Shown here in pieces: positions 2,144-3,380 of a stretch of 18,393 nt of DNA. The stretch's first letter is position 1, and the number at the start of each line of letters is the position of its first letter. The stretch lies in UHGV virus genome UHGV-1280364. One strand, 5' to 3'. This stretch comes from a virus. A model generated the notes under the pieces. It saw nothing but the letters and a program-made list of their open reading frames with translations. It did not search any database and was not told where the DNA came from. Made by a program: the position numbers and the translations under genes.

Positions 2144-2743
2144 GTGATTGAGATAGGCGTTATGGCCATCCTGAATCAAGAGCCAGGAAAAATTGAAAAC
2201 GTTTTTTCTGACATATCAACATCTATCGAGCGTTCAATTTCAGACTTTGATCGCAGTCATAGCGGCTCTTTGTCTAAAAAACAGGCTTCTGAAGCTCTTA
2301 GCAAGATCTACTGCGTTATGTCACCTGTAGAGGAAGTTTGCAAAAAGTACATTACATTCATTGACATATTAAGTAATGGTACGGAAGAAGATATTTCCTC
2401 ACTTGATATTCAACATGACGATGTAGATATGTTGAACGATCAAATATCTAAGCTTGATTATGGTATCGCGAAACTGTTGTATACCTTCTTCATCGCTGAG
2501 AACAGCGATGCGTGGAAGCCCCATATGTCAACTCTTACAACAATGAAAAACCACTCAATAAATACTTTTATAGAATACAAAAGGCTAACTATGGGGCTTG
2601 TGACGCTAGCAATGCAGCACATACCACTATCATATGCTGAACCTGAAGAGTTCACTGAAGAAGAGTTGGCTTCATTCAAGAAATCAGTTGAAGATTCACA
2701 TAAAAGATTTGGCATGGAAGCACCAAAATGGAAAACCGCATAA
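2144..2743 (+). CDS. Hypothetical acidic protein (199 aa), candidate partner or antitoxin of the downstream YafO-like gene
   Basis: Complete ORF 42 nt downstream of mnt in AT-rich DNA. GTG start at 2144 with AAGG upstream; alternative ATG at 2162. Its stop overlaps the start of the next gene (ATGGAAAACCGCATAA). No family recognised. Confidence 0.55.
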   Translation: MIEIGVMAILNQEPGKIENVFSDISTSIERSISDFDRSHSGSLSKKQASEALSKIYCVMSPVEEVCKKYITFIDILSNGTEEDISSLDIQHDDVDMLNDQISKLDYGIAKLLYTFFIAENSDAWKPHMSTLTTMKNHSINTFIEYKRLTMGLVTLAMQHIPLSYAEPEEFTEEELASFKKSVEDSHKRFGMEAPKWKTA

Positions 2744-2820
2744 GCATTGTTGTAGATGCAGCGGCTGGACCATTAGAACAATACTTTGCTTATGCGGTTT
2801 TTCATTGTTGTAAGAGTTGA
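2728..2820 (+). pseudogene. Truncated 5' copy of the YafO-like gene (30 codons, ends in junction sequence)
   Basis: ATG at 2728 encodes MENRISIVVDAAAGPLEQYFA, identical to the first 21 residues of the complete ORF at 2961, then diverges into the junction and terminates at 2820. Confidence 0.6.
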
Positions 2821-2823
2821 CAT

Positions 2824-2976
2824 ATGGGGCTGGTGACGCTAGCAATGCAGCACATACCACTATCATATGCTGAACCTGAAGAGTTCACTGAAGAAGAGTT
2901 GGCTTCATTCAAGAAATCAGTTGAAGATTCACATAAAAGATTTGGCATGGAAGCACCAAAATGGAAAACCGCATAA
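2824..2976 (+). CDS. Duplicated mini-ORF encoding the C-terminal 50 residues of the 199-aa protein (possibly expressed fragment)
   Basis: The second repeat copy starts exactly at an ATG, giving MGLVTLAMQHIPLSYAEPEEFTEEELASFKKSVEDSHKRFGMEAPKWKTA. It keeps the same 16-nt overlap with the downstream gene start as the full-length ORF. No obvious ribosome-binding site, and below the ORF-track length cutoff. Confidence 0.3.
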   Translation: MGLVTLAMQHIPLSYAEPEEFTEEELASFKKSVEDSHKRFGMEAPKWKTA

Positions 2977-3380
2977 GCATTGTTGTAGATGCAGCGGCTG
3001 GACCATTAGAACAATACTTTGCGAAGGCTCTTGCAAACTACAAAAACAGAGGCACCGTTTCAGTTTATCTTGGTAAGATTGGTGGGTTTGAGAGAAACCA
3101 TCACGCCGTCTTATCGGGAATTTACAAGTCGCACATCAGGATCCCTGGAGTAGATGACCCTTGGTTAAAAACAACGCCAATACATCGTAGAGTTAGCGAT
3201 AACTTTTTGATATTTGCGGTACACAACACATATCCAATTCATATCCAGATCATTGCTATCATTAAACCTGATGGTCATGAGAAGGTAAAAAAACTATTGC
3301 CAGCCATCATTGATATAACTGAAAAAAGATTCCAATCTCTAAATGAGAGGGAGCTTAACTCGTTGATTTCATACAAATAA
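2961..3380 (+). CDS. YafO-like toxin candidate (139 aa; putative ribosome-dependent mRNA interferase family)
   Basis: The C-terminal half (NFLIFAVHNTYPIHIQIIAIIKPDGHEKVKKLLPAIIDITEKRF) resembles the E. coli YafO C-terminus as I recall it (...HLVYCQGAFDEQAWLLIAILKPEPHKLARD...KMAEAFRMRF). Start overlaps the stop of the upstream ORF. Based on recalled similarity only, not a search. Confidence 0.5.
   Translation: MENRISIVVDAAAGPLEQYFAKALANYKNRGTVSVYLGKIGGFERNHHAVLSGIYKSHIRIPGVDDPWLKTTPIHRRVSDNFLIFAVHNTYPIHIQIIAIIKPDGHEKVKKLLPAIIDITEKRFQSLNERELNSLISYK

Follow-up and report, generated by a model that had tools for sequence, protein, structure and literature searches.

The 18,393-nucleotide (nt) stretch of the virus genome UHGV-1280364 analysed here, hereafter referred to as the window, harbors a duplication with a period of 233 nt in a putative toxin-antitoxin (TA) operon. 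The duplication spans the boundary between two overlapping genes, namely open reading frame (ORF) A, which encodes the putative partner of the toxin, and yafO, which encodes a toxin of the YafO family. Judged from its sequence, this feature is, on balance, probably a recent and private structural mutation that was generated by template switching of a DNA polymerase, and not an evolved element.

Anatomy of the duplication and its junction

An earlier note on this DNA had described a 200-bp segment present in two copies that are separated by a 33-bp patchwork of inverted copies of nearby sequence, and both parts of this description were borne out. Positions 2590-2789 and 2823-3022 are identical apart from a single mismatch, the direct repeat extends on neither side, and Tandem Repeats Finder (TRF) reports a period of 233 with 1.9 copies and 99% matches. 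The sole difference between the copies, T at 2599 versus G at 2832, converts CTT into CTG in the frame of ORF A and of the 50-codon mini-ORF contained in copy 2 and is synonymous (Leu), as the note had stated. The junction between the copies contains no untemplated base. Its shorter inverted patch (2787-2801) is the reverse complement of 2732-2746 over 15 nt; the length previously given for this arm was correct, but its position was not (2733-2747). The longer patch (2796-2831) is the reverse complement of 2517-2552 over 36 nt with 100% identity, an arm whose full length had not been given before.

The junction was parsed from left to right against the reconstructed single-copy sequence. The parse yields four successive templates: forward to 2789, inverted from 2743 to 2732, inverted from 2546 to 2517, and forward from 2600. 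Adjacent templates overlap by TGC (3 nt, 2787-2789), GGTTTT (6 nt, 2796-2801) and TATGGGGCT (9 nt, 2823-2831), respectively. In the parent the overlap at switch 3 comprises a convincing 10 nt, with AAGCCCCATA (2516-2525) facing TATGGGGCTT (2590-2599) across a spacer of 64 nt, whereas the pair at switch 1 is limited to GCA/TGC (3 nt) with a spacer of 40 nt. Two local matches suffice to tile the junction, while at least five were needed in 20,000 junction shuffles. Thus, with all junction bases templated in inverted orientation and microhomology at three of three switch points, the data support the template-switch footprint that the earlier note had proposed.

Moreover, the duplication is accompanied by two private substitutions at positions 2832 and 3064. 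Over 7.4 kb (896-8306) these substitutions and the duplication are the sole differences between the window and the related loci L026 and L027. The G at 2832 is encoded by neither candidate template, as both forward position 2599 and the complement of position 2516 are T. The substitution at 3064 affects YafO residue 35, which is Ala in all homologues compared from E. coli, CUS-3 and Pectobacterium. Both substitutions, 232 nt apart, are located on the side made after the last switch, and copy 1 and everything to the left of it are unchanged. The chance that two random substitutions fall into this 242-nt interval, which was picked post hoc, is approximately (242/7644)^2, or about 0.001. Their restriction to the post-switch tract fits low-fidelity synthesis of the type attributed to break-induced replication (BIR) that is mediated by microhomology (MMBIR). 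BIR and MMBIR are error-prone, with point mutations acquired alongside the rearrangement, according to the part of PMC4352052 that cites Carvalho et al. 2013.

In the proposed mechanism, synthesis of the plus strand would copy the single-copy operon up to position 2789, where the 3'-end (...TGC) would fold back on GCA at 2744-2746 and copy 2743 to 2732 in reverse. Via the shared hexamer AAAACC (2732-2737 and 2547-2552), synthesis would then move on to copy 2546 to 2517 in reverse, before it would return to the forward template through the AAGCCCCATA/TATGGGGCTT inverted repeat and resume at 2600. As an outcome, 2590-2789 would be copied again, and error-prone synthesis after the switch would leave the substitutions at 2832 and 3064. 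An equivalent route would be a tandem inversion duplication (TID) with a 228-nt inverted middle that is cut by a 185-nt deletion between the AAAACC repeats. The AAAACC step may accordingly represent either the third switch in one event of fork stalling and template switching (FoSTeS)/MMBIR or a later deletion that shortened a near-palindrome.

The arrangement resembles products of known mechanisms. As a fold-back product it combines a single-copy parent, two direct copies, an inverse-order copy between them and the lack of untemplated filler. The TID model, as outlined in the passages of PMC4689423 that describe Kugelberg et al. 2010, invokes fold-back switching at short interrupted inverted repeats in Salmonella, and the same passages report that palindromic junctions undergo secondary deletions. 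In line with this model, two direct copies flank inverse-order material, the return switch occurred at a pre-existing 10-nt interrupted inverted repeat, and the inverted middle looks as if shortened by a deletion between 6-nt direct repeats. However, the present duplication measures 233 nt with an inverted remnant of 12 + 30 nt, in contrast to the kilobases of selected lac amplifications, its first fold-back relied on 3 nt only, no complete gene is amplified, there is no sign of dosage selection, and a single three-switch event explains the structure equally well. Serial microhomology switches, inverted inserted segments, and point mutations near the junction on the newly made side are likewise typical of FoSTeS/MMBIR, including inverted triplications flanked by duplications (DUP-TRP/INV-DUP) and related rearrangements (PMC4352052, citing Carvalho et al. 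2013). These human events span kilobases to megabases, whereas three events of 233-347 nt are found here in a bacterial prophage, and an in-vitro origin is possible. Finally, template switching at quasipalindromes is well documented in E. coli (PMC7202029; Ripley 1982; Lovett laboratory). It shares with the present case the use of the nascent strand as template at an imperfect inverted repeat, a product with longer perfect inverted repeats (here 15 and 36 bp), and a hotspot behavior that is suggested by the occurrence of the same junction in two other read sets (see below). Unlike the classical type, which corrects a few bases within the palindrome and returns at once, the return occurred here 233 nt upstream of the departure point, which gave rise to a duplication.

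The arrangement in relatives and two further duplications

A comparison with related prophages, which had been suggested as a check, revealed no relative that carries the duplication. Phage CUS-3 and 44 of 44 complete E. coli genomes containing the whole locus are collinear with the window, their spans being exactly 233 nt shorter. When the junction was used as query in the same 44 genomes, only the 36-nt source segment matched, on the opposite strand, and the exact junction patterns were not found in one-genome-per-species contigs, IMG/VR or JGI metagenomes. In about 20 further assemblies, fetched via the neighboring proteins, the genes for the 199- or 193-aa and the 139-aa protein are adjacent. 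The neighboring 109-aa and 424-aa proteins are widespread (346 and 350 blocks, respectively), and the contigs returned with them were long and single-copy.

A gene for the 50-aa product of the mini-ORF has been called on nine public contigs, and the duplication is visible on none of these. Four of them stem from noisy assemblies in which the locus is single-copy and ORF A is frameshifted, and three start at or beside the mini-ORF ATG. The other two, L006 (SRR4292310) and L009 (SRR32591767), begin with nothing but the switch-3 join: exactly 30 nt (k-1) at their start derive from the opposite strand, corresponding to the reverse complement of window positions 2516-2545, after which the sequence runs forward from the ATG. 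Both represent the CUS-3 haplotype and contain T, not G, after the join. The switch-3 join hence recurs independently, and the inverted repeat is prone to strand switching. This recurrence could be due to a hotspot of biological nature or to fold-back artefacts that arise repeatedly when libraries are prepared.

A repeat scan of the whole window in combination with TRF revealed two further duplications, dup2 and dup3; the earlier note had overlooked these two, which together with the duplication in the toxin operon bring the number of private duplications in the window to three. Dup2 is a perfect tandem duplication with a period of 290 nt (identity run 15633-15925 versus +290). It leaves the boundary genes terL and portal intact and adds a truncated portal' (51 aa) and an ORF for a C-terminal TerL fragment. 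Dup3, a perfect tandem duplication with a period of 347 nt (identity run 16845-17195 versus +347), frameshifts terL into ORFs of 238 and 377 aa. Upon collapse of both duplications the 471-aa terminase of the relatives is restored; if the sequence is correct, dup3 would render the prophage packaging-defective. Neither dup2 nor dup3 contains a substitution.

A query comprising positions 15400-17800 (2401 nt) was covered to at least 80% by 357 E. coli genomes and eight phages. Dup2 and dup3 are present in none of them, as each of the listed full-coverage hits spans 1764 nt, that is 2401 - 290 - 347. Moreover, the contig L022 from the sister sample SRR2298124 matches the window with 100.000% identity along two stretches of 7,953 nt and 1,202 nt and has one copy only at each of the dup2 and dup3 sites, and L023 from SRR2298207 is identical to the window and single copy at the dup2 site. 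In a 153-billion-gene index we found no record of the 30-aa truncated toxin yafO', of YafO A35V, of the 238-aa TerL fragment or of a 79-aa ORF. Taken together, the private differences over approximately 17.5 kb consist of three microhomology duplications and the substitutions at 2832 and 3064. Since structural changes outnumber unlinked substitutions, a single recent episode is indicated, be it in the cell or in the tube.

The toxin operon and the products of the rearrangement

The window comprises the late and immI region of an E. coli prophage of the P22-like group (Lederbergvirus, CUS-3-like), with genes for DNA transfer, tail, head, portal and terminase on the minus strand beyond the hkcB-like gene (Table 1). 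It is a mosaic: apart from the duplication and the two substitutions, its left part (896-8306) is identical to L026/L027, which further on encode a 721-aa portal and a 499-aa terminase, and its right part (7973-18393) is identical to L022/L023 (732-aa portal, 471-aa terminase), the two parts sharing 7973-8306. As judged from the sequence, this structure fits an exchange of modules between P22-like prophages by ordinary recombination. In addition, a degenerate tandem array (42 nt x 3, 68% matches) at 8883-9006 lies within the coding region of a tail gene and is probably a coiled-coil repeat of the tail protein.

Table 1. Coordinates of genes, repeats and rearrangement products in the window, with junction k-mers
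Feature	Position	Strand	Remarks
Copy 1 of the 200-nt repeat	2590-2789	+	ORF A codons 150-199, 16-nt overlap, first 21 yafO codons; ancestral T at 2599
Junction, 33 nt	2790-2822	+	reverse complement of 2732-2743, then of 2526-2546
Copy 2 of the 200-nt repeat	2823-3022	+	
Source template of the shorter patch	2732-2746	+	spans ORF A stop codon
Source template of the longer patch	2517-2552	+	copied as 2796-2831
Ancestral interrupted inverted repeat, switch 3	arms 2516-2525 / 2590-2599	+	also in single-copy relatives
Derived G	2832	+	T in all relatives; first base past switch-3 microhomology
Derived T	3064	+	C in all relatives; YafO A35V; 42 nt beyond end of copy 2
Junction k-mer, switches 1 + 2			CTTTGCTTATGCGGTTTTTCATTGTTGTAAG
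Junction k-mer, switch 3			GTTGACATATGGGGCT[G/T]GTGACGC
yafO', truncated toxin start, 30 aa	2728-2820	+	21 native residues and 9 junction-encoded (YAVFHCCKS)
Mini-ORF, 50 aa	2824-2976	+	ORF A residues 150-199; stop overlaps start of full yafO by 16 nt
Hairpin, 20-bp stem	2727-2806	+	structured 40-nt loop, U-rich 3' side; directly after ORF A stop
Long-range duplex, perfect 36 bp	2517-2552 with 2796-2831		buries AAGAG (2812-2816) and mini-ORF ATG (2824)
Dup2, perfect tandem duplication	15625-16215		3-nt microhomology TGT; spans terL 3' end / portal 5' end (minus strand)
Dup3, perfect tandem duplication	16845-17542		4-nt microhomology CTCA; inside terL
Junction k-mer, dup2			CCAGCTTCCCGTTGTGCGCCGGATACC
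Junction k-mer, dup3			GTAGAACATGAACTCACTGGCTCACC
ant	340-1341	-	
sar antisense RNA	1276-1343	+	Rfam RF00262, 90 bits; overlaps ant start, as expected for P22-like group
arc	1604-1825	-	
mnt	1853-2101	+	
ORF A, 199 aa	2144-2743	+	no Pfam family; phrog_18235; putative partner/antitoxin of YafO-family toxin
yafO, full length, 139 aa	2961-3380	+	PF13957; isoelectric point (pI) 9.6
hkcB-like gene	3403-3732		downstream of yafO
ORF A + yafO module, window	2144-3380		
ORF A + yafO module, L013-L015	4001-5004		
ORF A + yafO module, L012	1455-2457		

The earlier note had stated that both full-length genes remain intact and that the extra material encodes a truncated toxin start and an ATG-initiated 50-codon ORF. 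Indeed, the DNA of ORF A is identical to that of L025-L027, yafO is of full length, but with the A35V exchange, and both additional reading frames are present (Table 1). The stop codon of yafO' (TGA, 2818-2820) precedes the mini-ORF ATG by 3 nt, and an AAGAG motif resembling a Shine-Dalgarno (SD) sequence is located 7 nt upstream of this ATG. The mini-ORF has an ATG simply because the microhomology used by the last switch includes the codon for Met150 of ORF A. The ORF A stop and the yafO start overlap by 16 nt (ATGGAAAACCGCATAA) in every relative. In the window a chain of coupled reading frames is predicted to remain, leading from the ORF A stop/yafO' start overlap via yafO' and the mini-ORF to the overlap of the mini-ORF stop with the yafO start. 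From this layout, a loss of the direct coupling between yafO and ORF A is predicted, with two extra coupling steps and 233 nt interposed.

Folding in silico predicts a hairpin at 2727-2806 with -36.8 kcal/mol (z = -3.6), and the fold of 2500-2850 is dominated by the 36-bp duplex (z = -9.0). This stability is trivial, because the inverted copies exactly duplicate neighboring sequence. The G+C-rich core of the hairpin is followed by UUUUU, a run for which an A run upstream offers a pairing partner, and the consensus terminator scan did not call the hairpin, its loop of 40 nt exceeding 8 nt. A TTGACA motif at the junction (2816-2821) was rejected as a new promoter: there is no acceptable -10 element at a distance of 16-18 nt, and the promoter scan called none. 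A perfect 36-bp RNA duplex would be a plausible substrate for RNase III, and cleavage could destabilise the whole message. Given the two extra coupling steps, the hairpin and the 36-bp duplex, the output of toxin relative to ORF A is predicted to fall, if it is changed at all.

The toxin itself is assigned to the YafO family by Pfam PF13957 (44.2 bits versus a cut-off of 25, E = 2e-11). However, with the NCBIfam YafO equivalog NF007377 its score does not exceed 14 bits (cut-off 153), and it is thus not an orthologue of K-12 YafO. For ORF A we obtained no sequence hit in Pfam, NCBIfam or the PDB and no fold match, the fold search returning generic helical bundles only (best E = 0.17). Furthermore, the protein does not qualify as a Phd/YefM (YafN)-type antitoxin, and a weak PADLOC hit to PtuB (E = 0.005) was disregarded. 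ORF A is acidic (pI 4.9) and all-helical, whereas YafO is basic. The AlphaFold model of ORF A (mean predicted local distance difference test score, pLDDT, 78) consists of four long helices (14-157), after which come an acidic linker of low confidence (158-171) and, set apart at the C-terminus, a further helix (172-188). Many antitoxins contain flexible toxin-binding tails, which this linker and helix resemble, and the model is compatible with such a function of the C-terminus. The invariant motif of ORF A, ERSISDFDRSH, is located in the N-terminal part, and conservation of the C-terminal 50 residues does not exceed that of the remaining protein.

An overlapping pair of ORF A and yafO is conserved in three contexts. 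In P22-like phages the pair occupies what we take to be the position that P22 uses for sieA. In Pectobacterium it constitutes a free-standing two-gene cassette flanked by an ABC transporter and gcvP (66% identity, same 16-nt overlap), and in a distant phage a homologue is found beside mnt/arc (29% identity, 11-nt overlap, 130-aa partner). This architecture, together with the acidic and basic character of the two proteins, suggests a toxin-partner relationship, and ORF A appears to represent a so far uncharacterised family of partners of YafO toxins. In a survey published in 2011, the antitoxins of YafO toxins were either Phd or unclassified proteins assigned by 'guilt-by-association', and no YafO toxins were found on phages (PMC3141249). 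As in YafN-YafO of E. coli K-12, the toxin passes the Pfam YafO_toxin cut-off, the upstream gene overlaps the toxin gene, and here an acidic upstream protein is combined with a basic downstream protein. In contrast to the K-12 system, the partner is a 199-aa helical protein without similarity to YafN/Phd, the toxin falls below the NCBIfam equivalog cut-off, and the module is located at a sieA-equivalent moron position, with toxicity and neutralisation being putative and deduced from the genes.

Origin and meaning of the duplications

The same chemistry could have operated outside the organism, the three duplications stemming from amplification chimeras, library fold-back, assembly or finishing; the genome of the organism would then be single copy at all three sites. 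We regard this explanation as possible rather than probable. It would account for three private duplications without any unlinked single-nucleotide polymorphism (SNP) on a background that is 100% identical to public contigs, for the k=31 contigs of the sister runs that are unbroken across the dup2/dup3 sites, and for the lack of any window-specific product or junction in the public assemblies and gene indices searched. Fold-back artefacts at a 10-nt repeat would also place the switch-3 join at contig starts from two unrelated runs, and, with the large terminase gene frameshifted by one duplication, nothing argues for maintenance. Moreover, the chemistry resembles that of the chimeras which a strand-displacing polymerase forms in multiple displacement amplification (MDA): most of these are inverted and intramolecular, and a complementarity of 2-21 nt primes them (Lasken and Stockwell 2007, PMC1855051). 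However, these chimeras are mostly inversions with intervening deletions, each present in single molecules, and a consensus with three duplications and two linked substitutions is not expected from them; as they are rare and random, three in an 18-kb consensus would need a very low template number or coverage. Neither is an assembler likely to produce a three-switch junction within 33 nt, nor would simple concatenation of overlapping contigs give microhomologies of 3 and 4 nt. The phi29 enzyme is a high-fidelity polymerase and would not explain two substitutions clustered past the last switch. In addition, the rest of the window is clean, with intact long ORFs and no scattered indels.

The reading that we favor, a structural mutation by template switching, has to contend with several observations that weigh against it. 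The arrangement is known from assembled sequence, and the sister samples are devoid of dup2 and dup3; we infer that a k=31 contig could not have crossed these sites unbroken if the junction k-mers had existed. Three structural changes versus no unlinked substitution in about 17.5 kb are abnormal for natural divergence, and an origin in vitro or during assembly would suit this excess as well as a burst in vivo. As there are three private duplications, the artefact and the mutational-burst readings both gain weight. The 3-nt microhomology at switch 1 is close to the chance level, the products specific to the window are unrecorded in the 153-billion-gene index, and the effects predicted for expression derive from sequence and folding. 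Tandem repeats of 200-350 nt are expected to be lost quickly by recombination, and the coexistence of three such repeats thus requires a very recent origin. Finally, the periods of 233, 290 and 347 nt increase by an exact step of 57 nt and are all 2 mod 3; this series may be a coincidence or the characteristic slip distance of one process.

If the duplication is real, it might have been kept because the mini-ORF supplies extra toxin-neutralising peptide, a supply that the earlier note had considered, or otherwise lowers YafO toxicity, which would represent an adaptive change in TA dosage. Based on the sequence features this appears improbable. The conserved overlapping ORF A/yafO pair in three contexts, the opposite charges of the two proteins and the tail-like end of the ORF A model are in line with the idea, and the mini-ORF is plausibly translated in view of the AAGAG motif and the yafO' stop just before its ATG. 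The same genome carries the private A35V change in the toxin, and truncated transcripts favoring the antitoxin are known from some TA operons including YafNO (PMC5535158). However, the mini-ORF starts (residue 150) inside predicted helix 4 and not at a domain border, its ATG exists only by virtue of Met150 in the switch microhomology, and in the predicted fold the SD-like motif and the ATG are buried in the perfect 36-bp duplex. Nor is the C-terminal part that it encodes better conserved, the invariant motif being N-terminal, and the variant was found in none of the other genomes compared and is accompanied by the disruptive terL duplication. Moreover, at terL/portal, where no toxin is involved, dup2 yields an identical layout, so that the layout is geometric and does not speak for adaptation: the truncated yafO' and the mini-ORF of 50 codons arise as by-products when a duplication extends across the boundary of two genes.

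Next to no probability is attached to the view, which the earlier note had named as one that would refute its own proposal, that the duplication and its inverted repeats serve the immI/toxin region of P22-like phages as a conserved and structured element of regulation, be it a terminator, an attenuator or an RNA switch. The stability of the hairpin and of the long-range duplex far exceeds that of shuffled controls, but this follows trivially from exact inverted copies, and the terminator scan was negative. Such an element is refuted, since none of the related loci examined has the arrangement; at the site Rfam returned no match either.

Returning to template switching, microhomology is present at each join, with lengths of 3, 6 and 9-10 nt at the switches in the toxin operon and of 3 and 4 nt in dup2 and dup3, respectively, and the point mutations cluster by the first of these junctions, as expected for MMBIR. 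We interpret the three duplications of 233, 290 and 347 nt as a single episode of unstable replication that probably took place in the cell. A more far-reaching version is an unlikely, speculative scenario: all three duplications and the two substitutions would stem from one MMBIR-like episode in vivo, of low processivity and error-prone, that extended over at least 15 kb with a characteristic back-slip of about 230-350 nt, for example in abortive induction or under replication stress, and its by-products in the toxin operon, a C-terminal antitoxin fragment open to translation and a hairpin, would damp YafO.

In either case, no new kind of genetic element is involved; mechanistically the feature is of a known kind. 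If the duplications are artefacts, they serve as a warning that small perfect microhomology duplications can enter a consensus and pass for biology. If real, the toxin-operon duplication would record, in natural form and with unusual clarity, a series of template switches in a bacterial genome, in which each junction base can be assigned to its template, the parent is known to the base, the point mutations are confined to the side made after the last switch, and two simpler sister events are located nearby. It would then help to calibrate how often clustered mutations and small complex duplications in bacteria and phages stem from one replication accident and how often from several independent events. 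Moreover, it would illustrate how a toxin gene that overlaps with its partner gene can become uncoupled from it, with both genes undamaged, when the boundary between them is duplicated. Provided that a single in-vivo episode and the damping of YafO hold true, the prophage would offer a natural case of a replication accident that rewired a TA module.

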